Of a DNA stretch of 64,000 nt, positions 7,749 through 62,213 are shown one piece after another. The notes below the pieces were generated by a model that was not told the DNA's origin, ran no database searches, and worked only from the letters and a program-made list of their open reading frames with translations. Source of the stretch: Minisyncoccia bacterium (GTDB taxonomy: Bacteria > Patescibacteriota > Minisyncoccia > SW-4-49-11). Where the stretch lies: the NCBI GenBank assembly GCA_044356725.1, contig JBIKVS010000005.1, positions 7,876 to 71,875 of the forward strand, given 5' to 3'. The position numbers and the translations under genes were made by a program. The stretch's first letter is position 1; each line of letters opens with the position of its first letter.

Positions 7749-7965
7749 ACAAAAAATATGTTTAAAAAATATGATATGGAATATAGATACCAATCATATA
7801 CATACTTAGTATAAACGACATCTATTGACCACATTGTCAAATATAATAACATATCAACCTAAATTTGTCAAGCTTTAATAACACCGATTGAAGGTGTCTA
7901 TTCTGTCCTCCCTTGGGGGAGGTGGCACCGTAGGTGACGGAGGAGGACTGAGCTAATTCCCCTAA

Positions 7966-9018
7966 TTATTCATTATCTTTCAAAAATTCTTTGATCTGTT
8001 TATCAAAATCAGATTCAAACAGCCTATCTTGCACAATTCTATATTTTTCAAATTGAGTTTCTGCATAAAGTTTAGCCTCCTCACTACTAATTTTACCTGC
8101 ATTGATAAGTATATCTCTATCATTAAATTCCAAAAAAGAATCAAGCCGCCTACTCCAATCCTCCATTGTCATAGGGATATTTCTCTCAGCCTGTAGCTCC
8201 GCATAATCAAGATACATAGAAACTATTCTTTCCAAAAAATTTATTTCCTTTTCTGTAAGATAATTTTTCGCAATACTTACATCATATTTTTGAATTTTAC
8301 CATTTGGAGCATCCAACCAGCTAGTAAGCCCCATATTTTCTTTATCAGCATTAGCTCTTTTTACAATCAATTCAGGAGCTGTATGTCTATGCACCGCATA
8401 ATGCAATTTATTTTGTACAATTTGGAAAAACTTAATAGTAGTAGAAGCAGAAGAATCATAATCAACACTAGTTGCATAAATATCCGTCACTTTTTGATAA
8501 AACATTCTTTCACTAAGCCTAATTTCTCTAATCTTTTGTAATTGTCTTTCAAAAAACTCTTTATCAAATTGATTAGCTTGCTTTAACCTTTCACTATCCA
8601 TAGCCCAACCCTGAATAGTATAATCTTTTACTATTTGTCTTGCCCATTTACGAAATTGTACAGCTCTGTCATTTTCTATCTTGAATCCAACTGCGATAAT
8701 AGCTTGGAGATTATAATGGTCTATATTCCTTTTTACTTCTCTTATACCTTCTCTTTGAACTATCAAGTATTGCTTGATAGTTGCTGAATCAATTTCTTTT
8801 TTTTCTACCAAAGTAGCAATATGCTGTTGTATAGCTTGCACAGATACCCCATACATTTCCGCCATCATTTTTTGAGTCATCCAGATATTTTCATCTTCAT
8901 ATCTGACCTCTATACTTTCCGAATCATCTCCACTCGAAGATACAAAAGTCAAATACTGAGCCGTACTTGCCTGAATAAGCTCCGCTGCAGATTTTTGCTT
9001 TAGTGTTTTTTTGGGCAT
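7966..9018 (-). CDS. RhuM-family protein (putative DNA-binding/virulence-associated)
   Basis: Conserved RhuM blocks: YNLQAIIAVGFKIENDRAVQFRKWARQIV, YQKVTDIYATS.DYD, KLHYAVHRHTAPELI. Paralogous to 43215-44222 and to the N-terminal half of 44785-45762. Confidence 0.6.
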   Translation of the reverse strand: MPKKTLKQKSAAELIQASTAQYLTFVSSSGDDSESIEVRYEDENIWMTQKMMAEMYGVSVQAIQQHIATLVEKKEIDSATIKQYLIVQREGIREVKRNIDHYNLQAIIAVGFKIENDRAVQFRKWARQIVKDYTIQGWAMDSERLKQANQFDKEFFERQLQKIREIRLSERMFYQKVTDIYATSVDYDSSASTTIKFFQIVQNKLHYAVHRHTAPELIVKRANADKENMGLTSWLDAPNGKIQKYDVSIAKNYLTEKEINFLERIVSMYLDYAELQAERNIPMTMEDWSRRLDSFLEFNDRDILINAGKISSEEAKLYAETQFEKYRIVQDRLFESDFDKQIKEFLKDNE

Positions 9019-9240
9019 AATTTTTATAATCAGGATATATATATTCTATTATACTATAATAATGACCTAATTTACAATATAAATTCATAGCGGAGGGTTT
9101 TGTTTTTCTATCACTCGCCTACGATGGTGTCAATAAGTGCCGGGTGTGGGATGAGTTTAACTATAAATGATGAATTATGAATTGTAGGGAGGGACCTTTC
9201 AGTCACATGTTTAACAAACTATTGCAAAAATATAACTTAT

Positions 9241-10968: not shown

Positions 10969-11187
10969 ACTAATCTGTCCAGCCTGCTTTTAGGCTGGAT
11001 ATTTTTATTTATATACTACCTTATTTACCTAATACTTCCCCTAAAAAATCCCCTCTTGAGGGGTGGACAGCTTCGCTGGACGGGGTGGATAATTAGTAAA
11101 AATATCTCCAAATGGAGAAAAAATCCAGATATTTGTCTTGCTCTATTCTATCCTGCAAGATAGCATATTGTAGTTGTACGTATTCAA

Positions 11188-25211: not shown

Positions 25212-25247
25212 AAAAAAGCCTCTGCGATGCAGGGGCTTGTGGGGTTT
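25212..25247. terminator. hairpin terminator module (bidirectional)
   Basis: aaaaaagcctctgcgatgcaggggcttgtggggttt. On the minus strand the stem is followed by a T7 run. The leader aaatttttggagNaaagaaaaaagcc is shared with 41121-41168. Confidence 0.5.
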
Positions 25248-25270
25248 AGTCGATCTAGATATTTTGTGGT

Positions 25271-25456
25271 TCATATATACTCTATAGAGTGAATATAAGA
25301 TCCATCACTTAATTGATTCATTTCTTCACATATACTCTTTACCTGTTCGACGGAATCATATTCAATAATTTTTCCCTTACCTTCACTACCAGTTCCTATG
25401 TGTTTCCAGTTAACCCGGGCTTTGATTTTGTTGTGCTCCTGCATATTAGGATCCAT
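25271..25456 (-). CDS. small conserved protein (61 aa), member of a 3-copy family in this window
   Basis: MDPNMQEHNKIKARVNWKHIGTGSEGKGKIIEYDSVEQVKSICEEMNQLSDGSYIHSIEYI. Has its own terminator. Paralogues at 42540-42735 (pseudogene) and 41916-42074 (GC-rich). Confidence 0.4.
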   Translation of the reverse strand: MDPNMQEHNKIKARVNWKHIGTGSEGKGKIIEYDSVEQVKSICEEMNQLSDGSYIHSIEYI

Positions 25457-25539
25457 TTTTTAGATGAAGCTTTTGTTTACTGAATACTTATAGCATAATA
25501 TTACTACTTTGTACATAGCTTAATTCTTCTTCGATAATA

Positions 25540-25800
25540 TTAGTCCACCCTCCGCCTACTGGTACTCCCTCCGAAGGGAGACATTAGCTCAGTCCACACC
25601 CGTCGCAAATGTCCTCCTCCCCCGTCGCAAATAGGATTTGCTCCTTGAAAATCCAGGGTTTCCAACACTCGGTCTTTGACCTCTTTGCCTTCCTCCACGG
25701 TAAAACTACCGTTTTCCCGACCCCTTTCCCAAAGGCTAAAGCCTTTTTTAGGTACTCCCTCCAACTACTTACGGCAGTTAAAAAGGGAGACATAAATACA
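25540..25800. repeat. GC-rich modular intergenic repeat cluster (modules A-B-C)
   Basis: gtccaccctcc..tactccctccgaagggagacattagctcag / ccgtcgcaaat(g/a)ggatttgctcc / ttgaaaa(c/t)ccacggtttccaacactcggtctttgacct... shared with 41630-41900, 42150-42530, 42815-43150, 44350-44750. Confidence 0.8.
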
Positions 25801-27742: not shown

Positions 27743-28045
27743 CTAGGATTCCTTGATGTGACGAATCTCCTCTTCGAGATAATTGATGTCACGCTGAGTG
27801 TATCCCAGCATCTGTGCCGCCATGAAGACGACAAACAGTGCTGCCCCCAGCCGCTGTGGCATGGCATCAATCCCCCGCAACAGTGCGAGGAAAAAGAATC
27901 CCAAGCACACAAAGCCCCCGACGAAATAGAATGCCTGCAACACCTTCAGGAACTTCACTCCTCCCTTCAAGAGGCGCTCCTGCTCGACGGCAGGATACTT
28001 CTTGGAATTGTGAAGCATGTTTTCGGCGATGGAAAGGTAGGCCAA
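27743..28045 (-). CDS. small two-TM membrane protein encoded in an anomalously GC-rich (about 53%) segment
   Basis: 100-aa ORF with two hydrophobic helices (FYFVGGFVCLGFFFLALL, AALFVVFMAAQML). The surrounding genome is about 30% GC. Four overlapping ORFs on both strands are a GC artefact. Confidence 0.35.
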   Translation of the reverse strand: MAYLSIAENMLHNSKKYPAVEQERLLKGGVKFLKVLQAFYFVGGFVCLGFFFLALLRGIDAMPQRLGAALFVVFMAAQMLGYTQRDINYLEEEIRHIKES

Positions 28046-33265: not shown

Positions 33266-36200
33266 ATGGAAAATGAAAGATATTTTAGATCACAAACTGA
33301 AGAAGAAATAAAGGAATTTGATGAACTACAAGCTAAGAAAGATGAGATAATTCTATTATTGAAAAGTGGTGATATTGAGGGAGTAAAACAAATTCAGCAG
33401 GAATTTGCTCTGTCTGATGACATTATGCAATCACCAGAAGTTCAAGAAGCTGCAATAGAAGGGTTTATTGATAACTTAAAATATGCTGAGATTAGGAGTG
33501 CAAAAGAAATTCAGCAGGAATTTTCTATCTCTGATGAGATACTACAGTCTTCCGAAGTCCAAGAAGCCGCTAAGGAAGGGATAATTTATAGATTAAAAAA
33601 GGGTAATATTGATACAGTAAAAAAAATAAAAGAAGAATTTTCTATATCGGAGGAAATAATACAATCTCCAGAAGTCCAAGAAGCCGCTAAGGAAGCGATA
33701 ATTTATAGATTAAAAAATGGAGATATTAGGAGTGCAAAAGAAATTCAGCAGGAATTTTCTATCTCTGATGAGATAGTCCAAGAAACTGCAATAGAAGGGT
33801 TTATTGATAACTTAAAATATGCTGAGATTAGGAGTGCAAAAGAAATTCAGCAGGAATTTTCTATCTCTGATGAGATACTACAGTCTTCCGAAGTCCAAGA
33901 AGCTGCTGTAAAAGGGATAATATTTATTTTACAGCAGGGTGATATTTATACAGTAAAAGAAATAAAAGAAGAATTTTCTATATCGGAGGAAATAATACAA
34001 TCTCCAGAAGTCCAAGAAGCTGCTGTAAAAGGGATAATATTTATTTTACAGCAGGGTGATATTTATACAGTAAAAGAAATAAAAGAAGAATTTTCTATAT
34101 CGGAGGAAATAATACAATCTCCAGAAGTCCAAGAAGCTGCTGTAAAAGGGATAATATTTATTTTACAGCATGGTAATATCGATAAAGCTAAAGAAATAAA
34201 AGAAGAGTTTAGTATATCAGAAGAGATAAGCCAGTCTCCAGAAGTCCAAGAAGCTGCTATAAAAGGAATAATATTTATTTTACAGTATGGTAATATCGAT
34301 AAAGCTAAAGAAATAAAAGAAGAGTTTAGTATATCAGAAGAGATAAGCCAGTCTCCAGAAGTCCAAGAAGCTGCTATAAAAGGAATAATATCTCTTTTGA
34401 AGATATATATGTTGGAGGAATATCCCCATGCAGCTATCGGAATAACTAGAGAAATAATAGATGAATTTAATGTATCAGAAGAGATAATACAACAAACTCC
34501 TAAAATTCAAGAAGTAGCGAAAGAAGGAATTATTTCCCAATTGAAGAGAGGAGATATTGAGATAGCTAAAAAAATACAGGAGGTATTTTTTGTTCCAATT
34601 GGAGAGGATATGAAAAATATGATTGAAATGAGTACACTATTTTCTACCTCTACAACCACTTCTTTTCAAACAATATCCATTAATTTAGATACTTATACAG
34701 AAGAACAATTAGCAACAATGTGGTCAAAAGCTCAAGAGTATGAATCTTGGGAAGATGAACATACTGTAAAAGCTCCCTTTGAGGCAGGTGTTGAAATATT
34801 TGGATATAAAAGAATGTTGCAGTATATAAAACGAGAAGGTTTAAGTCTTCATGATGCGGTGCATACTTTTGAGGGTGTTATTGACTTATACAATGTATCT
34901 GAGCTTGGCGAATCTGAATTTTATGGACACATTCTTCAGCAAGTTATGATGGATACCCGTGAATACGATGAAGGAAATGCACATCAACACTTTAATAGAA
35001 TTGTACAAACTATGAATAAAGATATTGCTGGAGTTTTGTCAAAAGCTGAGCAATATAATGAAGTCCAAAGATTACAAGATTTGATCTTATATTTTAATAA
35101 TCCTCAAGCAGTTTTTTCTTCTTGGAGTGATTTAAAAAGATATAGTGAGATTGAGCAGTTACTTGGACAAACCGAAATCTTAGATGAGCTAAAAGCATTA
35201 AAAGCAGAGGGAAAAGAAAAATTATATACTTATATTGAGACCCTTGCCTTCCACCCAGATAGTAAAGTTAATATGCAATCAGTTATGCAATTTTGGCGCG
35301 ACCCAGATGCATTTTTAGCAGCAGATGCTTCACATACCCCATATGAAATTCATAATAGAAAAAAGCCATCAAATTATATTGATATACCTAATTTAGATTT
35401 AACAGCATCAGAACTTAGAGATGCTTTGGTTGAGGGCAAGATGGATGGACTCTCTGTATTTACCCCATTAGAAATACGTTATACTATTCCTATAGAAGAT
35501 ATAAAATCTGAACCATTTCCAGATTTAGTCAATAAAGCACTCGGGTCAAGTAAAAAAGGTATTGCAGGAGAAGCAAGGAATCCACGTAAATTATTTAATG
35601 AGCTTGGGAAATTACTCAAACCTCATGGGGTAGGAGTGATTGAATATATTCAAGGACAATCATTACCAGAAGATATACATATTGATCAACAAATTCAAGA
35701 TTTGCTATATAATCCTGAATTTGGTATGAAAAAGTTAGAAGTTAAAGCAAGAGATTTTATAGCAAAAATAAGTCAGAAAAGTGATCCTGAAGGAGCAATA
35801 GCGGGAGATGATACTGTTAACTGTATGCCTTTTGGAGATGGCAAAAATACCTTATATACATTTAACCCAAATACTTCACAATTTGTAATTAGAGCGGTTA
35901 AGGGTGATGGAAAAGAAAGGACTATAGCTCAAAGTGTGTTGACAAAAGATATTGATGTACAAAAACCAGTCCCATATATTACACAACAATTAGAGCATAC
36001 GGGTGGACATCTTGAAAGTGTGTTATCTGAAAATCTTGTAATAAATGCTCCTGTTTATCTTGCTTGTGATAATATTGAAGTAGCTCCAAATTATTCTGAT
36101 GAAAGATATAAGCAAATTATTGAGGCAATATATAAAGATTTCTTTAGAGAGTATATGACTAAATACTCATCAACTCAAAACTTAGACCCTACTAAGGTTC

Positions 36201-36973
36201 CTATAGGAATGGGTTATACCGATGCTCTTAGTACATTACAAACAGAATCTAATACCTTTATCCCACAAGCTCCTGTGAGTTATTCAGACAAAACAGGAGA
36301 ATATGTATATACACTTGATCTTAGAAATGAAGAAAATTTAAATCTTATCTTAAATAAAGCGGTGCAAGAAACAGAAGTGGAAGCTCAGGGAGAAGTCCCT
36401 ATTCCTAACATAAAAGGATTAGATTACTTAACATTTGAGGATACACTTAAAGCCTCATATCTTGAGGGCAAAGCATATTCAGATAATCAAGGACTTATGC
36501 AGTTTTTAGCTAATATGGAAAATAGTTTAATTGCCAAAGACATAAATAATGCAGCTAAAGATAGACCTAATATGAGTCTTAAATATACAGATGAGGCTGG
36601 ACGAATTAAAGGCTATATGCTTTCCTGGGAGGGACATTTAAATGATAGAAATATTCAATACGATATGCCAAATTTATCTAATGAACCTTGTATTTATATT
36701 ATGGATCTTGCAACAGATTTAGAAAGTAGTATGGCTGGGGGGAGGTTGATACAAGGTTTTATAGAGTTGTATAGACAGAATTATCTCGATAAAGGAAATC
36801 TTATGCCAATTTTCACTCAAGCAAGGGAAGCTACTTCATATAAAATTATAAAAAAACAGTTAGATAGATTAGGTCAAAGTACTGGATTTGCTTTTGAACT
36901 GGTAGAATTACCTACATATAAAGTTGGAGATGATGTAATGTATCCTGTTATTATAAGTCCAGTCTCAACATAA
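33266..36973 (+). CDS. large repeat-containing protein (about ten 39-aa tandem repeats plus an 800-aa C-terminal domain of unknown function)
   Basis: Repeat unit EFSISEEIIQSPEVQEAAVKGIIFILQQGDIYTVKEIKE. 1235-aa ORF. Confidence 0.55.
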   Translation: MENERYFRSQTEEEIKEFDELQAKKDEIILLLKSGDIEGVKQIQQEFALSDDIMQSPEVQEAAIEGFIDNLKYAEIRSAKEIQQEFSISDEILQSSEVQEAAKEGIIYRLKKGNIDTVKKIKEEFSISEEIIQSPEVQEAAKEAIIYRLKNGDIRSAKEIQQEFSISDEIVQETAIEGFIDNLKYAEIRSAKEIQQEFSISDEILQSSEVQEAAVKGIIFILQQGDIYTVKEIKEEFSISEEIIQSPEVQEAAVKGIIFILQQGDIYTVKEIKEEFSISEEIIQSPEVQEAAVKGIIFILQHGNIDKAKEIKEEFSISEEISQSPEVQEAAIKGIIFILQYGNIDKAKEIKEEFSISEEISQSPEVQEAAIKGIISLLKIYMLEEYPHAAIGITREIIDEFNVSEEIIQQTPKIQEVAKEGIISQLKRGDIEIAKKIQEVFFVPIGEDMKNMIEMSTLFSTSTTTSFQTISINLDTYTEEQLATMWSKAQEYESWEDEHTVKAPFEAGVEIFGYKRMLQYIKREGLSLHDAVHTFEGVIDLYNVSELGESEFYGHILQQVMMDTREYDEGNAHQHFNRIVQTMNKDIAGVLSKAEQYNEVQRLQDLILYFNNPQAVFSSWSDLKRYSEIEQLLGQTEILDELKALKAEGKEKLYTYIETLAFHPDSKVNMQSVMQFWRDPDAFLAADASHTPYEIHNRKKPSNYIDIPNLDLTASELRDALVEGKMDGLSVFTPLEIRYTIPIEDIKSEPFPDLVNKALGSSKKGIAGEARNPRKLFNELGKLLKPHGVGVIEYIQGQSLPEDIHIDQQIQDLLYNPEFGMKKLEVKARDFIAKISQKSDPEGAIAGDDTVNCMPFGDGKNTLYTFNPNTSQFVIRAVKGDGKERTIAQSVLTKDIDVQKPVPYITQQLEHTGGHLESVLSENLVINAPVYLACDNIEVAPNYSDERYKQIIEAIYKDFFREYMTKYSSTQNLDPTKVPIGMGYTDALSTLQTESNTFIPQAPVSYSDKTGEYVYTLDLRNEENLNLILNKAVQETEVEAQGEVPIPNIKGLDYLTFEDTLKASYLEGKAYSDNQGLMQFLANMENSLIAKDINNAAKDRPNMSLKYTDEAGRIKGYMLSWEGHLNDRNIQYDMPNLSNEPCIYIMDLATDLESSMAGGRLIQGFIELYRQNYLDKGNLMPIFTQAREATSYKIIKKQLDRLGQSTGFAFELVELPTYKVGDDVMYPVIISPVST
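33420..34560 (+). repeat. 117-bp tandem repeat array inside the CDS (some adjacent units identical)
   Basis: 33901-34017 is identical to 34018-34134. The flanking units are progressively diverged. Confidence 0.8.
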
Positions 36974-41187: not shown

Positions 41188-41556
41188 TCAGATTGGGCTT
41201 TTGGGAACAAGTCCGAGGCGCTCAACCTCAGGTTTGAGGTGGCAGACCTCTGGTTGTTCTGTTCTTTCTAACAATGGATCTCCGAGCAGAGCATACCCTG
41301 AAGTTGATGAACCCCCACTGTAGTAGGGAGCACAGTTAATGGGGCGGGATGCCCTGATCTGATCTCGAGCATCAGAGGCTGCGGCTATGTGAAGCATAGC
41401 AGCGTGAAGCATAGCAGCAGAAGCTTCGGCTCTGTGAAGCCTTGGAAGGAAGTAAATACTTGGTGTAGAACCAACTATTACTCCGAAAAGTAAGAAGAGA
41501 ATACGAGAGTCAGGCTTCCAAAGAGAATTTTGTTTGATAACTTCAGGTTTTTTCAT
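41188..41556 (-). CDS. small N-terminally anchored protein in a GC-rich (about 50%) segment
   Basis: 122-aa ORF with a TM segment (ILFLLFGVIVG). Contains the internal tandem 15-bp repeat gtgaagcatagcagc x2. Confidence 0.3.
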   Translation of the reverse strand: MKKPEVIKQNSLWKPDSRILFLLFGVIVGSTPSIYFLPRLHRAEASAAMLHAAMLHIAAASDARDQIRASRPINCAPYYSGGSSTSGYALLGDPLLERTEQPEVCHLKPEVERLGLVPKSPI

Positions 41557-41629
41557 TGAAAAATGAATTTGTTTTTCAAATAGACATTAGCACATAAAAC
41601 ACATTTTGTCAATAGTAGTCGTCAATTTG

Positions 41630-41900
41630 TAGTATGAGAGGCGATATGTCCACCCTCCGCCGTCGCAAATGGGATTTGCTCCTTGAAAACCCACGGTTTC
41701 CAACACTCGGTCTTTGACCTCGTTGCCTTCCTCCACGGAAAAACTCCCGTTTTCCCGACCCCTTTCCCAAAGTCTAAAGCCTTTTTACGGTGACACCTCC
41801 CCCAAGGGAGGACACAATACTTTTCCACCCCGTCAGGCAAAGCCTGCCACCCCTCAAGAGGGGAATTTAAAAAGCCACCGTGAGCGGGTGGCTTGGGGGG
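41630..41900. repeat. GC-rich modular repeat cluster (modules B-C-D-E)
   Basis: Shares over 85% identical blocks with 42150-42530 and 44350-44750. Ends with the gccaccgtgagcgggtggc terminator hairpin. Confidence 0.8.
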
Positions 41901-41915
41901 CTATGTATGAAGGAA

Positions 41916-42074
41916 TCAGGCACGAACTGCCCAGTGGCGGATACCAGGGCACTCCTGGTCCATCTCGTCACACATACTCTTGGCTTCTTTATCAGAGGAC
42001 ATGAGGATGGGAGAGGTTCCATGACCTGTCACTCCTGTGAAGGTTGATTTCCAATGAATTACGTAACGAAACAT
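41916..42074 (-). CDS. GC-rich paralogue (52 aa) of the 25271-25456 small-protein family
   Basis: MFRYVIHWKSTFTGVTGHGTSPILMSSDKEAKSMCDEMDQECPGIRHWAVRA aligns with ...VNWKHIGTGSEGKGKIIEYDSVEQVKSICEEMNQ... The terminator hairpin sits immediately downstream. Confidence 0.3.
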   Translation of the reverse strand: MFRYVIHWKSTFTGVTGHGTSPILMSSDKEAKSMCDEMDQECPGIRHWAVRA

Positions 42075-42149
42075 GGCCTTAGAGGTCAATTTACGATATT
42101 ATATATACCATATTTTACCAATTTTGTCAATAGTAGGCGTCAATTTGTA

Positions 42150-42530
42150 GTATGAGAAGCAATGTCCACCCTCCCCCTGCGGGTACTCCCTCCGAAGGGA
42201 GACATTAGATCAGGACACAATCCCCCGTCATAAATGTCCTCCTCCGCCGTCGTAAATAGGATTTACTCCTGTCCTCACTCCGTCGTCGCAAATGGGGATT
42301 TGCTCCTTGAAAACCCACGGTTTCCAACACTCGGTCTTTGACCTCGTTGCCTTCCTTCACGGTAAAACTACCGTTTTCCCGACCCCTTTCCCAGAATTTC
42401 AGTCTAACTACGGTGACACCTCCCCCGAGGGAGGACACAATACTTTTCCACTCTGTCCAGCAAAACCTGCCACCCCTCAAGAGGGGCATTTAAAAAGCCA
42501 CCGTGAGCGGGTGGCTTGGGGTTTAGTCGA
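42150..42530. repeat. GC-rich modular repeat cluster (modules A-B-B'-C-D-E)
   Basis: See the repeat family above. Confidence 0.8.
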
Positions 42531-42539
42531 TCTAGCTAT

Positions 42540-42735
42540 TTTGTGGTTCATATATATTCTACAGAGTGAATATAAGATCCATTACTTAATTGATTCATTT
42601 CTTCACAGATACTCTCTACCTGTCCGACTGAATCATATTCAATGATTGGTCCCTTACCTTCAGTACCATTTCCCATATGTTTCCAGTTAACCCGGGCTTT
42701 GATTTTTTTGGACTCCTACATATTAGGATTCATTT
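42540..42735 (-). pseudogene. pseudogene copy of the 25271-25456 small gene (CAG to TAG at codon 6)
   Basis: About 88% nt identity to 25255-25460, including flanks. Reads MNPNM*ESKKIKARVNWKHMGNGTEGKG... Confidence 0.5.
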
Positions 42736-42814
42736 TGGAGATACAGATTGTGTTTACTCAATACTTATAGCATAATATTGTTACTTTGTACATAAATTAA
42801 TTCTTCTTCGATAA

Positions 42815-43150
42815 TATTAGTCCACCCTCCCCCTACGGGTACTCCCTCCGAAGGGAGACATTAGCTCAGTCCACACCCGTCGCAAATGTCCTCCTCCCCC
42901 GTCGCAAATGGGATTTGCTCCTGTCCTCCTCCGTCACCTTTGGTGCCACCTCCCCCGAGGGAGGACAGAATGAAATCCATCCCAGCCTTGCAGGCTTTCC
43001 CCTCCGAAGGGGGACAATAACTCAAGTTACAGAATACTTCCACCCTGTCCAGCAAAGCTGTCCACCCCTCAATTTATCGACCGTAGGTGGAGAGAGGAAT
43101 TTTAATACAAAACACAGGCGACTGTAAGGTCGCTCCTAGGAAACAAATGG
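42815..43150. repeat. GC-rich modular repeat cluster (modules A-B-D-E')
   Basis: Contains cctcaatttatcgaccgtaggtggagag...ttttaatacaaaacacaggcgactgtaaggtcgc, the same module as 44665-44745. Confidence 0.8.
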
Positions 43151-43214
43151 TGTGGCAAGAGACCTTAAGGTTTATAAATACTATTTAGATATCACAGAAC
43201 AATAGCCTATAAAG

Positions 43215-44222
43215 TTATTTTTTTATTTTCTCTACTAATTTATCAAAGTCATTTGCGTAATTTTTATCTTGAATTACTCTAAATTTATCATATTCTGCTT
43301 CAGCTTTGAGCTTAGCTTCAAGCATTGATACTTTACCGTTATCTAGCAAAATTGGATCCCCTGAAAGTTCTAAGAATTGGTGTAAGAAAATATCCCAATC
43401 TTTCATATTCATTACTTTTCTATTTCTGGCTCTACTTTCTGCTAGATCTAAATAAGCCGATACTATTCTCTCTAGTTCTTTAATATGATTTTGATCAAGA
43501 TAATTCTTAGCTATTACAACATCACTTTTTAAAATTTTACCACTGGGAGAATGTTTCCAAGTTTTTAAACCCATAAATATTTTTTTATGATCAGCCTCAT
43601 TGTATATAATTTCAGCTGCGGTCTTCCCAGTGATTGCCCAATGTAATTTATTTTGTACTGTTGCAAAAAAATGTTTAGTGATATCTGCTTGACTATCATA
43701 ATCTGCTGAAAGTGTGTATATATCTGTTATTTTCTGATATAGTCTCCTCTCACTCATTCGTATTTCACGAATTCTTTCAAGCATTTCATCAAAATAATCT
43801 TTACCAAAATGCTTGATTTGTTTCAGCTTCTCATCATCCATAGCAAAGCCTTTGATTATGTATTCTTGCAGAACTAGAGATGCCCATTTACGGAATTCTA
43901 TTGCTCTATGTGAATTTACACGATATCCAACTGCTAAAATAGCTTGCAAGTTATAATATTCTAATTTTCTTTTAACTTTTCTTTTACCTTCATTTTGAAC
44001 TATTTCCAAAATGGAAACAGTTGCCTCTTTGATAAGCTCACCTTCTGTATAAATATTATCTAAATGCTTTGAAATAGCTGGGATTTTGACCTCGAATAAC
44101 TCAGCCATCTTCTTTTGGGTAAGCCATAAGGTTTCATCTTTAAAAAAAACATCAATGTTAATCTTCCCTGAGTCTGTTTGGAATATAACGAAATTATTTA
44201 ATAGCTCTAAATCTTGGCTCAT
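43215..44222 (-). CDS. RhuM-family protein
   Basis: YNLQAILAVGYRVNSHRAIEFRKWASLVL, YQKITDIYTLSADYD, KLHWAITGKTAAEII. Confidence 0.6.
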   Translation of the reverse strand: MSQDLELLNNFVIFQTDSGKINIDVFFKDETLWLTQKKMAELFEVKIPAISKHLDNIYTEGELIKEATVSILEIVQNEGKRKVKRKLEYYNLQAILAVGYRVNSHRAIEFRKWASLVLQEYIIKGFAMDDEKLKQIKHFGKDYFDEMLERIREIRMSERRLYQKITDIYTLSADYDSQADITKHFFATVQNKLHWAITGKTAAEIIYNEADHKKIFMGLKTWKHSPSGKILKSDVVIAKNYLDQNHIKELERIVSAYLDLAESRARNRKVMNMKDWDIFLHQFLELSGDPILLDNGKVSMLEAKLKAEAEYDKFRVIQDKNYANDFDKLVEKIKK

Positions 44223-44349
44223 ACTATTATGTTTGTATATTATGTAATTTAATTATACCGCATTTTAAGATTTTTGAGGAGGGGTGAAATTATAAATTAT
44301 GGATTGTTAATTATTAAATGATAAATTAGTAGAGTCGGTGCCCTCACCG

Positions 44350-44750
44350 ACATTATTCTAGAATTCCACCCTCCCCCTACGGGTACTCCCTCCTAAGGGA
44401 GACATTAGCTCAGTACACAATCACCCGTTAAAATGTCCGACGCCGTCGCAAATTGGATTTACTCCTGTCCTCACTCCGTCGTCGCAAATGGGGATTCGCT
44501 CCTTGAAAACCCACGGTTTCCAACACTCGGTCTTTGACCTCGTTGCCTTCCTTCACGGTAAAACTACCGTTTTCCCGACCCCTTTCCCAGAATTTCAGTC
44601 TAACTACGGTGACACCTCCCCCAAGGGAGGACAAAATACTTTTCCACCCCGTCAGGTGAAACCTACCACCCCTCAATTTATCGACCGTAGGTGGAGAGGG
44701 GAGTTTTAATACAAAATACAGGCGACTGTCAGGTCTCACCTATAAATGCA
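44350..44750. repeat. GC-rich modular repeat cluster (modules A-B-B'-C-D-E')
   Basis: See the repeat family above. Confidence 0.8.
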
Positions 44751-44784
44751 AAAGCTCTCGAGAGTGAAATTTTATATTCTAGGA

Positions 44785-45849: not shown

Positions 45850-45975
45850 AATGTCCACCCCCGCCTTGCAGGCTACCCCCTCCAACTACCTACGGGTTTA
45901 CCTCTCGTAGGGATGGAGTTAAAAAGGGAGACAATAACTCAAAGTTTCAAAAATACTCCAATCCTTCAAGAGGTA
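45850..45975. repeat. GC-rich repeat element (variant modules)
   Basis: gtccacccccgccttgcaggct...ggagttaaaaagggagacaataactcaa, related to modules in 42815-43150 and 25540-25800. Confidence 0.6.
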
Positions 45976-47044: not shown

Positions 47045-47170
47045 TTCGACAGGCTCAACAAACTAAGTCCTCCTCCGTCACCTACGGTGCCACCTCCCCC
47101 AAGGGAGGACACAATACTTTATCTACTAGAAAGAAAAAAGCCCCCGCTATCAGCGACGGCGGGGGTAAAT
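47045..47170. repeat. GC-rich repeat module D plus terminator hairpin
   Basis: gtcctcctccgtcacctacggtgccacctcccccaagggaggacacaatact, then gcccccgc-tatcagcgacg-gcggggg with a T-run on the minus strand. Confidence 0.6.
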
Positions 47171-55720: not shown

Positions 55721-55747
55721 ATATGCTATAGTAGAACTATAGCATTT

Positions 55748-56431
55748 TTACTTCTTATACAAAACCATACGATTTAAGTACATAAAAGGGATATCTACAA
55801 TACCTACTAGCCATTTGATAGCCATAGTCCCTACGATAATAGGCAAAAGTGGTTGTACGCCAGCAAAAGCAATAATAACAAAAATAACAGTGTCCAAAGC
55901 CATAGCTGGGATAGAGCTAAACACATTTCTCATCCAGAGATATTTTCCTTTGGTTAATTTTTTGAACCAATCAAAAATATAAGCATCTATATTCCCACTG
56001 ATTAACAAAGCCACCCAACTAGCAATCATAATTCTTGGAGTATAGCCGATGATTTGAGCAAAGTTTTCCTGCTCTGTCCAAAAAGGAGTTGGCTGTAAGG
56101 AAATTGCCAACCAGATGAAAAAAGCTATAGCAACTTGAGTGATAAAGGTAATGAATATCATCTTTTGGGTTTCTTTTATTCCAAATTTCTCATTAACTAT
56201 ATCTGTTAATAGAAAAGTGACCGCAAAGACCAAAGTCGCTGTATCAGAATAAAATTTAATAAACCCAAGATCAAACTCAGCAATTTTATAAGCTATAATA
56301 TTACTAGTCAGCACAAAAGCCACATATAATCCAACCAAAGCATCTACCCTATCATATCTACGAGCATACCAAGACCCAAATAAGGAAAAGGCTGTGATGG
56401 CTGTAATCCAAAATAAAGTTTGTGATAGCAT
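55748..56431 (-). CDS. VUT-family (DUF165/YhhQ-like) putative queuosine-precursor transporter, copy 1
   Basis: 227 aa, 6 TM, FLLTDIVNEKFG motif. About 92% identical to 59669-60352. Confidence 0.5.
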   Translation of the reverse strand: MLSQTLFWITAITAFSLFGSWYARRYDRVDALVGLYVAFVLTSNIIAYKIAEFDLGFIKFYSDTATLVFAVTFLLTDIVNEKFGIKETQKMIFITFITQVAIAFFIWLAISLQPTPFWTEQENFAQIIGYTPRIMIASWVALLISGNIDAYIFDWFKKLTKGKYLWMRNVFSSIPAMALDTVIFVIIAFAGVQPLLPIIVGTMAIKWLVGIVDIPFMYLNRMVLYKK

Positions 56432-56602
56432 AATTTTATAAATTAATTGATATTTTTATTATACACTATTTAGTGAATATATTGTAAATAATTGAATATT
56501 ATATTTTAAGTGCTGGAAACATCTAAGTTGCCTAGTAAAATTTAGTATAAATACAATAATTATGATATTATATAAATATATATTAATTTATTTATATAAT
56601 CT

Positions 56603-57142
56603 ATGTTCCCCAAAAAATTAGATAGAAAAGTTATATATAAAAGCAATTTTATAAATCTATATGTTGATAAAGTGCTTTTACCATCAGGTAAAATTATAGA
56701 GAAATATCATCAACTAGATTATCCAAAAGATTCAGTGTCTGTATTGATATTAAATCAAAAAAACGAAGTTTGTTTTATAAAATCGCTTAGATATACTACT
56801 CAAAAGGTAGAATGGGAAATACCAGCTGGACAAGTGGAAAAAGGAGAAAATATTATAGAGGCAGCAAGAAGAGAGGCTTTAGAGGAAACAGGATTTAAAG
56901 TAGAATCATTGAAATTAGTTTATTTATATAATCCAGCTAATGGAATGTCTAATCAGAATGTACATATTGTTTTTGGTAAAGTTATAGATAATGAAAATAT
57001 AAAATTTGATAAAGATGAAGTTCAAGAAATATTTTGGTTATCAAAAGCAGAAATAAAAGATTTAATATTGAATAAAGAAATCGCTGATGGTATATCTTTA
57101 TTATCAATATTATTATACTTGAATAATATTTTTTCACAATAA
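56603..57142 (+). CDS. NUDIX hydrolase
   Basis: Nudix box GQVEKGENIIEAARREALEETGF. Confidence 0.75.
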   Translation: MFPKKLDRKVIYKSNFINLYVDKVLLPSGKIIEKYHQLDYPKDSVSVLILNQKNEVCFIKSLRYTTQKVEWEIPAGQVEKGENIIEAARREALEETGFKVESLKLVYLYNPANGMSNQNVHIVFGKVIDNENIKFDKDEVQEIFWLSKAEIKDLILNKEIADGISLLSILLYLNNIFSQ

Positions 57143-57159
57143 ACTTTATAGTTAAATTT

Positions 57160-57633
57160 ATGATAGAATGTATAACATTATTCGGAGATAAAAAACTAAT
57201 CCCTAAAGAGGCTTTAATTTTTCGTCCAGCTGGATATGCAATTATTATACATAACGATAAAATATTACTTTGTAATACCAAAAGTACAGGTAAATATTGG
57301 TTTCCAGGAGGTGCTTTGGAATTAGGAGAAAATATAGAAAAAGCGATTGAAAGAGAAGTTTTAGAGGAAACTGGTATAAGAATTGAGAAAGTAAAATTTA
57401 TTTATTTTAAGGAGATATTTTTTTATTATAATCCACTTGAAACTGCATACCATAATTTTTCATTTTTCTATCTTTATAAACCATTAGATACAAAATTAAT
57501 TGACGATGATAAAGTTGATATAACGGATGAATCAAATAATCCTCGCTGGATAAATTTATCATCCTTAAAGAAAAAAGACTTTCAACCTGGTGTGGAAGAA
57601 ATTATAGATATAATATTAAATAAAAAATTATAA
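57160..57633 (+). CDS. NUDIX hydrolase
   Basis: Nudix box GGALELGENIEKAIEREVLEETGI. Confidence 0.7.
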   Translation: MIECITLFGDKKLIPKEALIFRPAGYAIIIHNDKILLCNTKSTGKYWFPGGALELGENIEKAIEREVLEETGIRIEKVKFIYFKEIFFYYNPLETAYHNFSFFYLYKPLDTKLIDDDKVDITDESNNPRWINLSSLKKKDFQPGVEEIIDIILNKKL

Positions 57634-58349
57634 TGCTACCCACCCACCAAGACATTCAACAATCCCTCAGAAAATACGCCACTATAGAGCGAAAGAGGAA
57701 AATTGAGTGGTTTTTCAAAACTGGTAAAGGTCAATATGGTGAGGGAGATCAATTCATAGGTGTCACTAATCCTGATGTTAGGAAAGTCGCTAGACAATAT
57801 CAAGATATAGACTTGCAGGAAATAGAATTTCTCTTGCACTCCCCTATTCATGAAGATAGATTATGTGCTCTCATAATACTCGTCAATCAAAATAAAAAAG
57901 CGAATTTAGCAACTAGACAAAAAATTGTAAAATTATTTCTTAATAATTTAGAATTTATAAATAACTGGGATTTGGTGGACTGTTCAGCTCATTATATTCT
58001 GGGCAGAGCCATAGCTGAAGAAGTAGAAAACATAAAAATACTAGATAAGTTGGCAAATTCTCAGACACTTTGGGAGCGAAGAATTGCAATTATCTCTACA
58101 ATGTATTTTATCTCTCAGAATAATATCACTGAAACTCTAAGAATAGCTAAAGTCTTACTGTCAGATAAAGAAGACCTGATTCATAAAGCCGTCGGCTGGA
58201 CATTAAGAGAAGCCTGGAAAAAGCAACCTCAAGAAGTTGAAAATTTTCTAAAAGACAATTATACCCAAATTCCTCGTACAACCCTCAGATACACCATAGA
58301 GCGAATGGAAGAGAGTAAGAGAAAAATGTTTTTGAGGGGGGTGTTTTAA
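57633..58349 (+). CDS. DNA alkylation repair protein (AlkC/AlkD-like HEAT-repeat glycosylase family)
   Basis: N-terminus LRKYATIERKRKIEWFFKTGKGQYGEGDQFIGVTNPDVRKVARQY matches the DNA_alkylation family start. 238 aa, all-alpha. Confidence 0.55.
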   Translation: MLPTHQDIQQSLRKYATIERKRKIEWFFKTGKGQYGEGDQFIGVTNPDVRKVARQYQDIDLQEIEFLLHSPIHEDRLCALIILVNQNKKANLATRQKIVKLFLNNLEFINNWDLVDCSAHYILGRAIAEEVENIKILDKLANSQTLWERRIAIISTMYFISQNNITETLRIAKVLLSDKEDLIHKAVGWTLREAWKKQPQEVENFLKDNYTQIPRTTLRYTIERMEESKRKMFLRGVF

Positions 58350-58359
58350 TTGCGGAGAG

Positions 58360-58450
58360 AGGTATATTACGAACTCGTCGTGAATGGGATTTGCTCCTAT
58401 CCACCCTCCCCCTTCGGGCACTCCCTCCAAAGGGAGACAAAATAAATTCC
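58360..58450. repeat. GC-rich repeat element (modules B'-A)
   Basis: cgaactcgtcgtgaatgggatttgctcc...ccaccctcccccttcgggcactccctccaaagggagac. Confidence 0.6.
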
Positions 58451-59610: not shown

Positions 59611-59668
59611 AATTAGGACCAAATAATCGCTCTACCCTATTATACTCCAGGCTAGCAACTTGGAGTTT

Positions 59669-60352
59669 TTACTTCTTATACAAAACCATACGATTTAAGT
59701 ACATAAAAGGTATATCTATAATCCCTACAAGCCATTTTATAGCCATAGTCCCCACTATAATAGGTAAAAGTGGTTGTGCCCCGGCAAAAGCAATAGCCAC
59801 AAAAATCACAGTATCCAAAGCCATTGCTGGGATAGAGCTAAAAGCATTTCTCATCCAGAGATATTTTCCTTTGGTTAATTTTTTGAACCAATCAAAAATA
59901 TAAGCGTCTATATTCCCACTGATTAACAAAGCCACCCAACTAGCAATCATAATTCTTGGAGTATAGCCGATGATCTTAGCAAAATTTTCCTGCTCTGACC
60001 AAAAAGGAGCCGGTTGTAAGGAAATTGCCAACCAGATGAAAAAAGCTATAGCAACTTGGGTTATAAAGGTAATAAATATCATCTTTTGAGTCTCTTTTCT
60101 CCCAAATTTCTCATTGACTATATCAGTTAAGAGGAATGTGACCGCAAAGACTAAAGTCGCTGAATCAGAATAAAATTTCGTAAACCCAAGATCAAACTCA
60201 GCAATTTTATAAGCTATAATATTACTAGTCAAAACAAAAGCCACATATAATCCAACCAAAGCATCTACCTTATCATATCTACGAGCATACCAAGACCCAA
60301 ATAAGGAAAAGGCTGTAATAGCTATAATCCACAATAAAATTTGTAATAACAT
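59669..60352 (-). CDS. VUT-family (DUF165/YhhQ-like) transporter, copy 2
   Basis: Paralogue of 55748-56431. Flanking 40 bp are also conserved. Confidence 0.5.
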   Translation of the reverse strand: MLLQILLWIIAITAFSLFGSWYARRYDKVDALVGLYVAFVLTSNIIAYKIAEFDLGFTKFYSDSATLVFAVTFLLTDIVNEKFGRKETQKMIFITFITQVAIAFFIWLAISLQPAPFWSEQENFAKIIGYTPRIMIASWVALLISGNIDAYIFDWFKKLTKGKYLWMRNAFSSIPAMALDTVIFVAIAFAGAQPLLPIIVGTMAIKWLVGIIDIPFMYLNRMVLYKK

Positions 60353-60460
60353 ATTTTATAATTTAGTTATATTTTTATTATACACTATTTATAAACTTAA
60401 ACAAGAGTGATTTTTTACCTATTTTAATAGAGCCTTTGTGTTATTATACAAAGGCTCTAT

Positions 60461-60925
60461 TTAGTGATTTAAATGTAATTTATACCAATCAAATCTAGAA
60501 TCTAGATATATAGGTATGTCTAATATTTTATCAAAATTATTTCTTTCAACTGCTATTTTATAAGTAAAAGAATTACCACTTATAGCTCTACCCCATAAGA
60601 TATTATAATTTTTGGATCTACTGTAATTTATTGCCTTCTTGATAATAGAACACCCTATATCTATATAATGTCTACTCCTTGGTTTTACGAGTAAATGGCA
60701 CATTTCAATCTCATCATTAAGTATAGTCTCTAAAGTACAAAAACCAACTATATTTCTATTTTCATCTTCTATGGAAATATAATGTATAGATTTATCTAAC
60801 CAAGCATTTAAAATATCTATAGTTAGACTATTACCATCATCACCAGAGACTCTAGCTAATGTTTGTTTAGATTTTACCCAGCTTACTATAATTAGTTTTT
60901 TTTCCAATGATAATAGTTTACCCAT
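60461..60925 (-). CDS. small protein, possibly GNAT-like acetyltransferase
   Basis: 154 aa. Weak GNAT-like pattern (IVGFCTL...HLLVKP...GCSIIKKAINYS). Confidence 0.25.
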   Translation of the reverse strand: MGKLLSLEKKLIIVSWVKSKQTLARVSGDDGNSLTIDILNAWLDKSIHYISIEDENRNIVGFCTLETILNDEIEMCHLLVKPRSRHYIDIGCSIIKKAINYSRSKNYNILWGRAISGNSFTYKIAVERNNFDKILDIPIYLDSRFDWYKLHLNH

Positions 60926-61012
60926 TGATTTTTATTAATTTTACTTCTAATTTATAACATATATACATATATTGTCAAATTATGGTATAATAAACAAAAA
61001 TAATTTATAAAT

Positions 61013-61519
61013 ATGTATAAAAAACGATTTTTCATCACATTTGCTGGAGTAATAGGAAGCTCTAAAACTCCAATAGCTCATTATTTAAGTATAAAATTGA
61101 ATTTACCAATATTTAATAATGATGCTATTCGATCAGAAGTAAAAGGAGATATTGGATTTTTGGATGAGGAAGAATATCTAAGGAGACGCGATATAAGATT
61201 GAAAGAAATATTCCATAATGGGATACCATTTATTTATGATGCCAGTATGGATAGGTCTTGGAAAGGTAAAAAAGAAGTTATTATACAAACACAATATGAA
61301 CCTTATATTATTAGCCTTGATTTTAGTAAAGAATTATTACTTCAATTATATCAGCAAACAAAATATTATGAGGCAATGCCATTACTTGATACATTTATGA
61401 AGGATCACAATAATTTTTTAGATCAATATGCAAATGATATTAATTTACATATTACAGATAAAGATTTTAAAGATAGACTAAATATTGCTTATTCTAATGT
61501 AAAAAAATATCTAGAATAA
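61013..61519 (+). CDS. small P-loop NTPase/kinase-like protein
   Basis: N-terminal Walker-A-like FAGVIGSSKTPIA. 168 aa. Confidence 0.35.
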   Translation: MYKKRFFITFAGVIGSSKTPIAHYLSIKLNLPIFNNDAIRSEVKGDIGFLDEEEYLRRRDIRLKEIFHNGIPFIYDASMDRSWKGKKEVIIQTQYEPYIISLDFSKELLLQLYQQTKYYEAMPLLDTFMKDHNNFLDQYANDINLHITDKDFKDRLNIAYSNVKKYLE

Positions 61520-61544
61520 TAAAATAAAAAACAATGCTACCCAC

Positions 61545-61856
61545 CCACCAAGACATTCAACAATCTCTCAGACACTTTGGGAGCGAAGAATTGCCATTAT
61601 ATCCACAATGTATTTTATATCTAAGAACAATATCACTGAGACTCTAAGAATATCGAAATTATTACTATCAGATAAAGAAGATCTCATGCACAAAGCTGTG
61701 GGCTGGACACTGAGAGAAGCCTGGAAAAAGCAACCTCAAGAAGTTGAAAATTTTCTAAAAGACAATTATACCCAAATTCCTCGTACAACCCTCAGATACA
61801 CCATAGAGCGAATGGAAGAGAGTAAGAGAAAAATGTTTTTGAGGGGGGTGTTTTAA
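61545..61856 (+). pseudogene. internally deleted, frameshifted copy of the AlkD-like gene
   Basis: First 12 codons (MLPTHQDIQQSL) are joined at a ctcaga microhomology to the 3' third of the gene (...SQTLWERRIAIISTMYFIS...RGVF). Out of frame across the junction. Confidence 0.6.
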
Positions 61857-61869
61857 TTGCGGAGAGAGG

Positions 61870-62075
61870 TATATTACGAACTCGTCGTGAATGGGATTTG
61901 CTCCTTGAACCCCCTCAGTTCCCTCAATCCCCCTACAACCCCATCTCGGACACCCACGGTTTTCGACATTCGGAGCAAGCTCCTTATTGCCTTCCTCTCT
62001 AGGGGTATTGATTACATCCTCCACGGGAAACTCCCGTTTCCCGACCCCTTCCCTAGTTCTAATCTCTCCCCACTA
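61870..62075. repeat. GC-rich repeat element (variant B'-C-like)
   Basis: Same start as 58360 (cgaactcgtcgtgaatgggatttgctcc), then a divergent module-C-like sequence. Confidence 0.6.
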
Positions 62076-62124
62076 CTACACATAATATAAAAAAATGGGG
62101 ATATACCCCATTTTCTATATTTAG

Positions 62125-62213
62125 CGGAGAGAGGGAGATTCGAACTCCCGATAGGTTTGACCCTATACTGCGTTTCGAATGCAGCGCAATAAACCGGACT
62201 ATGCGATCTCTCC
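62125..62213 (-). tRNA. tRNA-Ser (anticodon CGA), type II with long variable arm
   Basis: Reverse complement GGAGAGA...anticodon loop TTCGAAA...variable arm TATAGGGTCAAACCTATC...GGGAGTTCGAATCTCCC TCTCTCC G. Confidence 0.65.

Follow-up and report, generated by a model that had tools for sequence, protein, structure and literature searches.

Hairpin attachment sites are the closest known counterparts of the element described here. In CTXphi and in integrative mobile elements exploiting Xer (IMEX), the attP hairpin re-creates a duplex site, the target is dif, and host XerC/D act in trans on single-stranded DNA. The element studied here is a composite, GC-rich, non-coding repeat found in a 64,000-nucleotide stretch of the genome of a Minisyncoccia bacterium (hereafter the window), which represents most of the 75.8-kb contig Ga0335062_0000145 from the Joint Genome Institute (JGI) lake metagenome 3300035663. 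At its centre is module C, a motif of ~92 nt with three hairpins (P1–P3) closed by a long stem, P0. In most copies a tRNA gene stands just upstream, and its 3' end, from the T-loop residue G53 to the acceptor end and beyond, is represented in both strands of P0, inverted in one and direct in the other. Like the CTXphi and IMEX sites, the element has two inverted target-like copies ~90 nt apart that can fold into a target-duplex stem, target-like direct repeats at its flanks, with the inverted copy, the loop and a hybrid site at one end, and no recombinase of its own. Unlike them, its target is the T-loop-to-acceptor segment of ~30 tRNA isoacceptors instead of dif, and its loop is a sequence-conserved three-hairpin motif; the enzyme and the single-stranded DNA stage are in this case hypothetical.

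Integron attC sites are recognised by their R''/R' and L''/L' boxes, with AAC...GTT at the hairpin base, by an unpaired central spacer together with extrahelical bases, and by a loop that varies from 20 to 100 nt (PMC4889954). As in attC sites and clusters of such sites that have no integron-integrase (CALIN), the sites found here are defined by structure, appear to mark the 3' ends of cassettes in one orientation, often have no integrase nearby, and belong to cassettes with accessory or defence-type genes (PMC4889954). On the other hand, they show no R/L boxes, unpaired spacer or extrahelical bases; the AAC and GTT that flank the core stand at the tip of the stem (TTCGAAC-core-GTTCGAA), the loop is conserved and the stem is copied from the target. 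Moreover, unlike integron cassettes, the cassettes in the window carry sigma70-like promoters and terminators of their own. A third likeness is to islands that integrate at tRNA genes and to their derivatives without an integrase, the cis-mobilizable elements (CIMEs), with which the element shares an intact tRNA gene behind which the 3' end recurs as a displaced direct copy, a start in the T-loop, an upstream copy that brings a terminator, and serial or nested insertions at tRNA-Ser. It differs from such islands in having no integrase and in a unit often just 105–240 bp long, and from classical att sites in its structured core and inverted target copy. The absence of a linked recombinase, the small size of the unit (down to ~105–240 bp) and a three-hairpin motif set between inverted and direct target copies are unusual. 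The element is a variation on hairpin att sites and mosaics like those of repetitive extragenic palindromes (REPs), with an apparently undescribed core motif and target-copying anatomy; neither was found in Rfam 15 or in full-text searches of the literature.

The linkage to tRNA genes, which the earlier note on this DNA had overlooked together with the target-copied repeats, is the central observation. A tRNA gene stands on the same strand, 18–81 nt upstream of the motif, in 74 of 108 metagenome copies (among the matches listed) and in 48 of 80 genome copies, or ~60–69%; the targets comprise ~30 different anticodons and a transfer-messenger RNA (tmRNA), and a few copies converge with a tRNA instead. 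Among the 77 genome loci of 8 kb, 10 to 12 hold a second copy, and in one 13-kb locus copies lie behind two of eight tRNA genes, each with arms that match the tRNA in front of it. In the 5' arm lies the reverse complement of the T-loop, of the 3' strand of the T-stem and often of the 3' strand of the acceptor. The 3' arm repeats that segment directly; it often extends beyond the end of the tRNA and sometimes through the terminator, and it therefore forms a direct repeat with the intact tRNA gene. Both arms end at G53. Exact direct repeats of the tRNA 3' end measure up to 26 nt, or 54–68 nt with the terminator (L112 and L166). The block of identity starts at G53 in 19 and at position 60/61 in 30 of 78 cases, and ends mostly at −2 to +8 of the tRNA end, extending up to +40.

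The composition of the arms also tells what was copied. In all three well-registered cases, the 5' arm is exactly complementary to the tRNA 3' strand even at the G-U pairs of the tRNA, and is hence an inverted copy of that strand, not a copy of the tRNA 5' strands. Where the tRNA gene encodes no CCA, the arm has none either (35 of 37 cases), and the 3' arm reproduces the bases downstream of the gene. The arms were thus copied from DNA and not from mature tRNA, and an origin from a mature tRNA or a tRNA fragment is rejected. Insertion at the TTCGAA of the T-loop with a palindromic target duplication cannot explain the arms, since the 5' arm also carries the complement of the acceptor strand, and the T-loop within it is inverted and non-palindromic.

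Other features of these loci point to insertion as well. Exact flanking direct repeats of at least 12 nt were found for 51% of 138 elements, as compared with 1.2% in controls in which flanks were paired across different loci. The earlier note had proposed a search for target-site duplications; the direct repeats found here vary from 13 to 68 bp and follow no fixed length. Copies that are not next to a tRNA are likewise bracketed by local repeats (41 nt in L018, ~32 in L038, 18 in L080, 15 in L006 and 13 in L106). In L044, L143, L169, L041, L179 and L150, the matching tRNA or tmRNA lies 0.4–1.8 kb upstream with accessory genes in between; L118 is a weaker case, with 5.7 kb between tRNA and motif and a match of 11 nt only. 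The span between tRNA and motif thus varies from nothing to several kb of accessory genes, and the cargo includes an ArsR-thioredoxin-permease operon, small membrane proteins and a GIY-YIG protein; no recombinase was seen among the cargo open reading frames (ORFs) of these tRNA-to-motif loci. An intrinsic terminator often separates the tRNA from the motif, and in the loci inspected no promoter was evident between this terminator and the 5' arm. The intact tRNA with its displaced 3' copy, the start of the block in the T-loop and the fresh terminator that comes with the upstream copy make up the classical signature of site-specific integration into tRNA genes.

In the window itself, the target is tRNA-Ser(cga). 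The sequence CCTCTCTCCGC is present at 62124, 61859 and 58352, and a C-rich 11-mer similar in sequence to the tRNA-Ser 3' end, CCYCTCTCCRC, recurs at 58352 and 61859 and at the starts of the composite repeats E1 and E2 (Table 1), always on the minus strand; the E1 and E2 versions differ from tRNA-Ser by one or two bases. A 363-bp direct repeat, shared at 93% identity by the remnant at 58.4 kb and positions 61561–61923, brackets a 3.1-kb insert beside the tRNA-Ser copy. The allele with an empty site would have tRNA-Ser joined straight to AATTAAAAC. In L207 (2318–2418), from a relative with 86% protein identity, tRNA-Ser is followed directly by AATTAAAAAGA, which in the window stands next after the displaced 3' copy, and by this resemblance L207 may be an empty tRNA-Ser site. 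The region also contains a segmental duplication (55745–58416 and 59666–61923, ~93%) with a Vut_1-like gene in two 227-aa copies, which covers in addition the 3' end of the gene at 57633–58349, the B module and the tRNA-Ser 3' copy.

The structure of module C is supported by covariation. Among 107 distinct core sequences, in an alignment fitted to the model, standard pairs fill 97.2% of cells, compared with 85.3% in shuffled alignments and 35–63% in slid registers. Compensatory double changes number 242 cells against 64 in shuffles, 11 pairs show changes on both sides, and none of 500 shuffles reached the observed score; the same covariation was obtained in an independent MAFFT/RNAalifold alignment. 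The suggestion in the earlier note that module C might be a conserved structured element is thereby strongly borne out. The purine-rich junctions that link the three hairpins, GGAAGGGGU and GUGGAGGAAGGCA, hardly vary. In minimum-energy folds the motif is a four-way junction whose closing stem measures 12–22 bp, and the P0 duplex has a median energy of −25.4 kcal/mol, whereas mismatched flank pairs reach −19.5. On the G-rich strand there are 59 G-U pairs to 13 A-C mismatches, which identifies it as the folding strand. C(GNRA)G tetraloops are also more frequent on this strand (109, versus 42 on the opposite one), as is the DNA mini-hairpin GCGAAGC (45 occurrences versus 2). P2 is absent in L112 and L208. 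The short form without P2 in L208 (1796–2065) is accompanied by a perfectly compensated B hairpin. L011 and L036, linked to tRNA-Lys and otherwise near-identical to L048, have an extra 58 nt in the 3' strand of P3, which is a second, nested small insertion.

No Rfam 15 family was detected at the motif in the window and 16 further loci with either gathering or E-value thresholds. Signal recognition particle (SRP) RNA, tmRNA, 6S RNA, RNase P RNA, 5S rRNA and Y-RNA-like RNAs were rejected by eye, as their layout or conserved words do not fit the three hairpins, and the same applies to hepatitis delta virus (HDV)-like, hairpin and hammerhead ribozymes; the Rfam models available for most of these RNAs gave no match at the motif. 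A tRNA minihelix mimic was rejected because the T-loop bases are fully paired in the fold, and a protein-coding remnant because the reading frame varies among copies of module C. A DUF3800-V RNA (Rfam RF02964, 53 bits) lies in L027 (366–463, minus strand), ~1.2 kb from a tRNA-linked motif.

The motif is not confined to this locus, as the earlier note had allowed it might be. Searches with an exact pattern recovered at least 120 core loci in metagenomes from groundwater, sediments, lakes and bioreactors, and 77 in a collection of 185,579 genomes with a single one for each species, nearly all of the 77 in metagenome-assembled genomes (MAGs) of Patescibacteria; ~200 copies were gathered in this way from Patescibacteria genomes and metagenomes. 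The taxa comprise Paceibacteria, Kaiser-, Taylor-, Nomura-, Zambryski-, Azam-, Berkel- and Magasanikbacteria, and assemblies labelled 'Saccharibacteria'. A near-identical tRNA-linked motif with the same arrangement behind the tRNA is found in L197, a 'Candidatus Paceibacteria' MAG from Lake Mendota; it comes from a sample that also contains the window contig, is closely related, possibly conspecific, and has one copy in its 8 kb. This match places the window in the Patescibacteria. Genes for GIY-YIG and YraN proteins and for the CCA-adding enzyme occur near the motif only sporadically. Two scans of a viral collection were empty, and a viral origin is accordingly rejected.

In the window, module C belongs to a composite element of ~280–400 bp, and the GC-rich repeats are full, shortened or internally duplicated copies of it. 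Read on the minus strand, which is both the G-rich strand and that of the neighbouring genes, the large copies keep one order: terminator, X, D, E, C, B, B, A. The leading terminator is that of the upstream gene; X is the tRNA-Ser-like 11-mer; D consists of GAGGGGUGG, a small hairpin and GACGGGGUGGAA; E is GUCCUCCC-UUGG-GGGAGG; B, often present twice, is GCAAAU-CCC-AUUUGC; and A is CUCCCU-UCGG-AGGGAG followed by GGAGGGUGGAC, after which stands the sigma70-like promoter of the next gene. The modular shuffling described in the earlier note thus gives way to a single element with a fixed order, and this order (D-E-C-B-B-A) is kept between like genes in L141, a syntenic locus of another Paceibacterota MAG, where the set of cassettes is nevertheless different. 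Also in L141 (2330–2440; Paceibacterota P_PACE2, syntenic with 44.7–45.8 kb of the window), the RhuM-Fic gene is broken by a stop codon and then ends exactly at the start of a D module, with the microhomology GCCTACG at the junction, which suggests that the modules participate in illegitimate recombination. The small modules are true hairpins, with compensatory variants in D (CAGC/GCUG, AGGC/GCCU, AGGU/ACCU and CUGC/GCAG), in B (GCAAAU/AUUUGC, GUAAAU/AUUUAC and GUGAAU/AUUCAC) and, in four versions, in the A/E stems; wobble intermediates in B show no strand preference. The A/E units resemble whalefall-1 (RF01762; PMC2864571), which also has a CUCCC-tetraloop-GGGAG hairpin, a spacer and a 3' AGGGNGAGGAC-like tail, and both are known only from uncultured organisms. 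Whalefall-1 has been reported from one whale-fall metagenome only and has no assigned function (PMC2864571). However, the A/E spacer is 6 nt as opposed to 24, and the scores of 22.3, 22.3, 21.6, 19.9 and 17.0 bits fall below the gathering threshold of 37, so that the likeness is one of resemblance only.

These repeats, in their ~13 intergenic sites, are present in excess of chance: CCGTAGG occurs nine times against 0.96 expected in the window, and the G-rich tail pattern seven times against 0.99. Self-BLAST of the four large arrays, a repeat search and direct reading recovered 11 of the 13 sites listed in the earlier note as related sequence (Table 1). The remaining two, 9090–9215 and 45850–45975, were not recovered by the self-BLAST and show a weak kinship to other modules by eye only (~75% over 35–50 nt). 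A scan with the covariance model of the core, R1, returned five copies, all on the minus strand, with E-values of 1e-13 to 1e-22. The repeats are indeed GC-rich, with 47–53% GC against ~26–38% in neighbouring 1-kb windows and ~31% for the whole window, and identity between copies spans 61% to 100% instead of the 85–95% claimed. Their single orientation holds for the eight sites at 25–62 kb, which are C-rich on the plus strand and hence lie on the same strand as the minus-strand genes; the three sites at 6–11 kb are inverted. All copies in the window are intergenic and none lies in frame within a gene. ORFs that merely span repeats, as the earlier note had warned, are present, for example at 42292–42645 (+) and 44428–44739 (−). 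On the whole, the observation made in that note is confirmed, and its interpretation is partly supported.

Table 1. Copies and fragments of the composite element in the window, and their tRNA target (positions in the window).
Feature	Position	Strand	Segment recovered as related sequence	Content and context
Composite repeat E1	44350–44750	−	44350–44750	Between RhuM-Fic and RhuM genes; degenerate terminator, X (tRNA-Ser 3'-like, 44691–44701), D, E, C core (44498–44590; 88.8 bits), B, B, A
Composite repeat E2, coreless	42815–43150	−	42815–43150	Between RhuM and small ORF; terminator (43118–43133), X (43087–43097), D, extra A/E-type hairpins, B, A
Composite repeat E3	42150–42530	−	42150–42530	Terminator (42495–42517), D, E, C core (42302–42394; 88.8 bits), B, B, A
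Composite repeat E4	41630–41910	−	41630–41910	Terminator (41872–41894), D, E, C core (41678–41770; 91.2 bits), B, G-rich tail
Composite repeat E5	25538–25800	−	25538–25748	Downstream of GmrSD, upstream of small ORF; A-type hairpin, C core (25640–25732; several broken pairs; 77.4 bits), B, A
Canonical tRNA-linked copy	61858–62111	−	61890–61909; 61941–62056 (covariance model alone)	Terminator (62095–62111); 5' arm, inverted tRNA-Ser 3' end (62056–62079); core with enlarged P2 (61941–62056; 56.7 bits); extra hairpins; B (61883–61904); 3' arm, direct copy of tRNA-Ser 3' end (61858–61881); L008 near-identical
tRNA-Ser(cga)	62124–62213	−		Target gene; its 3' end is copied in the arms
Coreless remnant	58352–58440	−	58400–58439	A hairpin, B, second direct tRNA-Ser 3'-end copy (58352–58374)
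E-type unit, single	47045–47170	−	47067–47120	Unit 47067–47112, then intrinsic terminator; downstream of Dus
Degenerate A-type modules	45850–45975	−		Between Dus and RhuM-Fic; resemble 25750–25790 and 42975–43030 by eye
Two tandem D-type units, inverted	6302–6479	+	6378–6420	Adjoin tRNA-Glu and tRNA-Arg; C-rich X, TACGGNAGATAAAT, G-rich complement, small covarying hairpin
E-type unit, inverted	7885–7975	+	7899–7948	Between DEAD helicase and RhuM genes
D-type unit, inverted	11020–11100	+	11049–11089	
Degenerate unit, weakly related	9089–9215	+		Upstream of RhuM; by eye only
A/E units scoring below the whalefall-1 threshold	42824–42861, 42168–42205, 44368–44405, 47067–47112, 42923–42968	−		

The mechanism that spreads this element is inferred from its anatomy. 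The reading that we favour, with somewhat less than even confidence, is that the motif forms the distal end of an insertion cassette, itself non-autonomous and directed at tRNA 3' ends, and is probably a folded attachment site recombined in trans. The stem of such a hairpin-type site would re-create the double-stranded target, and a recombinase supplied in trans, be it an Xer-like enzyme of the host or a tyrosine recombinase from a helper, would act on the site, folded as single-stranded DNA or as RNA, with the T-loop region of the tRNA gene as its partner. The GC-rich hairpins (D, E, B and A) and terminators are additions made in this Paceibacteria lineage, and the copies among the defence genes of the window act, on this reading, as junctions, recombination substrates and transcription stops. 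The arrays would thus be the junctions of serially inserted single-gene cassettes, each with a promoter, a gene, a terminator and an element, which fits the one orientation that they share, the resemblance of the X words at their upstream ends to tRNA-Ser and the different cassette content of the window and L141. Of the kinds of mobile or recombinogenic element named in the earlier note, the general notion survives, as the family behaves like inserted mobile DNA, while the particular classes fare less well. Miniature inverted-repeat transposable elements (MITEs) are rejected because the arms change from one locus to another with the tRNA that they match, leaving no element-specific terminal inverted repeats, and because the direct repeats are not short target duplications of fixed length. 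Rickettsia palindromic elements (RPEs) are 100–150 bp long and often inserted in frame within protein genes; they are rejected because no in-frame insertion was seen, and in L141 the gene is instead cut off by the element.

Several observations weigh against an attachment site recombined in trans. No integrase, transposase or tyrosine-recombinase signature was found in the window by Pfam and signature scans, and the 1.29 Mb of DNA flanking 197 loci contained a single Xer-like tyrosine-recombinase signature, 10 kb from the motif. Clustering of neighbours likewise revealed no conserved neighbour protein, with no family present in more than seven of ~115 loci, and the proposed enzyme is therefore hypothetical. 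The absence of core copies from 2.9 million viral contigs, in an exact-pattern scan, means that no vehicle is known either. The loop, that is P1–P3 and their junctions, is highly conserved in sequence, unlike the loops of attC sites, and its GNRA-type tetraloops and G-U excess fit RNA at least as well as single-stranded DNA. The array copies are mismatched in P1, P2 and P3 and may be decaying remnants rather than active sites. No pair of empty and filled sites was secured, L207 being merely suggestive as its contig ends 11 nt past the tRNA. Finally, the proposed steps leave the re-matching of the arms to ~30 different tRNAs unexplained.

The main rival is a gene for a structured non-coding RNA, whether a small RNA, a ribozyme or a guide- or bridge-like RNA, with the arms and direct repeats as by-products of its spread and the window arrays as duplicated or decaying copies of the gene together with REP-like hairpins. 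We consider this rather unlikely, and it does not exclude an insertion cassette. The strong covariation, the near-invariant purine-rich junctions, the preference for G-U over A-C and the surplus of C(GNRA)G tetraloops on the G-rich strand are all as would be expected of an RNA; the motif usually has the orientation of the upstream tRNA, and the target-complementary 5' arm looks guide-like. Yet the frequent terminator between tRNA and motif and the lack of an evident promoter there speak against it, no Rfam family matches, P2 can be absent, the four array core copies have a few broken pairs, and the DNA mini-hairpin GCGAAGC is in strong excess on one strand. The sporadic distribution, at 77 loci with the exact pattern in the 185,579 species genomes, makes an essential RNA unlikely. 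Also rather unlikely is a bolder reading: either that Patescibacteria possess an unrecognised, integrase-less system of gene capture at tRNA genes, analogous to attC or to the attP of CTXphi, in which a three-hairpin site with a target-copying stem can be programmed to any tRNA 3' end, or that the motif is a guide- or bridge-type RNA of a new sort, with arms that determine where insertion takes place.

The remaining explanations account for parts of the data. REPs are palindromes of 20–40 bp with an unpaired tag at one end; they number in the hundreds across a chromosome, and the gene of their transposase has repeats at its flanks. The tag is GTAG or CGTC, and many REPs are situated downstream of a gene (PMC3733652). 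The small modules might be palindromes of this kind, or of the related bacterial interspersed mosaic elements (BIMEs), moved by a REP-associated tyrosine transposase (RAYT, a Y1 transposase) encoded elsewhere, with module C as an unrelated passenger, a possibility that we regard as improbable. As in REPs, BIMEs and REP doublets forming hairpins (REPINs) (PMC3733652), short GC-rich palindromes are found here in intergenic mosaics downstream of coding regions, between unidirectional genes; pairs in opposite orientation fold into larger hairpins of ~100 nt; and CGTC- and GTAG-like words recur, since B on the plus strand reads as CGTC plus the 6-bp palindrome GCAAAT-NNN-ATTTGC in nine copies, and CCGTAGG is enriched. 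Here, however, the GTAG of CCGTAGG sits in hairpin loops and not in an unpaired 5' tag, the modules keep one fixed order around a conserved core, and the locus-specific, target-copied arms and long flanking direct repeats are foreign to REPs; no Y1 transposase or RAYT was found in the window with Pfam or among the neighbours of ~115 loci, so that this part of the earlier interpretation is not shown. A retro-mobile unit akin to short interspersed nuclear elements (SINEs), in which the tRNA 3' end would bind the 5' arm as a primer and target-primed reverse transcription would leave long, variable duplications, would suit the complementarity of the 5' arm to the last 13–24 nt of the tRNA and the 13–68-bp direct repeats. 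It is very improbable given that the arms follow the gene flank without CCA and thus have a DNA source, that no reverse transcriptase occurs in the window or among neighbours, and that there is no A-rich or other 3' tail. Equally remote is the idea that the repeats are local segmental duplications within one island, without mobility or function of their own. Whole cassettes have in fact been duplicated (25240–25539 and 42517–42816, 90%; 55.7–58.4 and 59.7–61.9 kb, 93%), but the ~200 core loci in many Patescibacteria lineages and habitats, the covariation and the target-copied repeats at ~30 different tRNAs refute such duplication as a complete explanation.

The setting of the arrays is a defence island. 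According to Pfam scans it occupies ~40 kb, from 6 to 45 kb, and encodes three RhuM proteins (one fused to Fic), AIPR, an Eco57I-type (type IIG) restriction-modification system, Schlafen/AlbA, an SNF2-PLD helicase, GmrSD, a type III restriction-modification system and DUF4391 with SNF2; it is flanked by tRNA-Arg/tRNA-Glu and by the housekeeping genes for Dus, KsgA and an ABC-F protein. Some 40 kb of stacked defence genes thus adjoin tRNA-Arg and tRNA-Glu, although the whole genome probably measures less than 1 Mb. The position of the repeats between accessory genes, pointed out in the earlier note, agrees with this map, in which the arrays bound the defence genes and separate single-gene cassettes (RhuM, RhuM-Fic, small proteins and GmrSD), with gene-plus-element arrays in one orientation at 41.6–45.8 kb. 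All contexts recovered around RhuM were identical, with no strain variation seen. Three small minus-strand ORFs (41188–41556, 27743–28045 and 41916–42089) have ~52% GC in this 31% GC genome, each with a sigma70-like promoter and an intrinsic terminator, and look like recently acquired foreign cassettes; the one that was scanned, 41188–41556, matches no Pfam family, and 41916–42089 is a GC-rich paralogue of AT-rich small proteins at 42548–42676 and ~25290–25475. The ORF at 33266–36973 (+) encodes a product of 1235 aa with no Pfam match and contains, at 33359–34487, at least nine tandem repeats of 117 bp (39 aa).

Patescibacteria, also known as the candidate phyla radiation (CPR), have tiny genomes with few recognisable mobile elements and yet maintain large defence islands, and the gain and loss of accessory genes in this group are poorly understood. 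A widespread element without a recombinase, found at tRNA 3' ends and where defence cassettes meet, would offer a handle on gene flow in this large uncultured radiation, and its sequence and structure model could be used to locate insertion sites and cassette boundaries in MAGs. The repeats also account for spurious ORF calls and contig breaks in these genomes. Beyond these uses, module C is possibly a new structure-specific recombination site or a new guide RNA.

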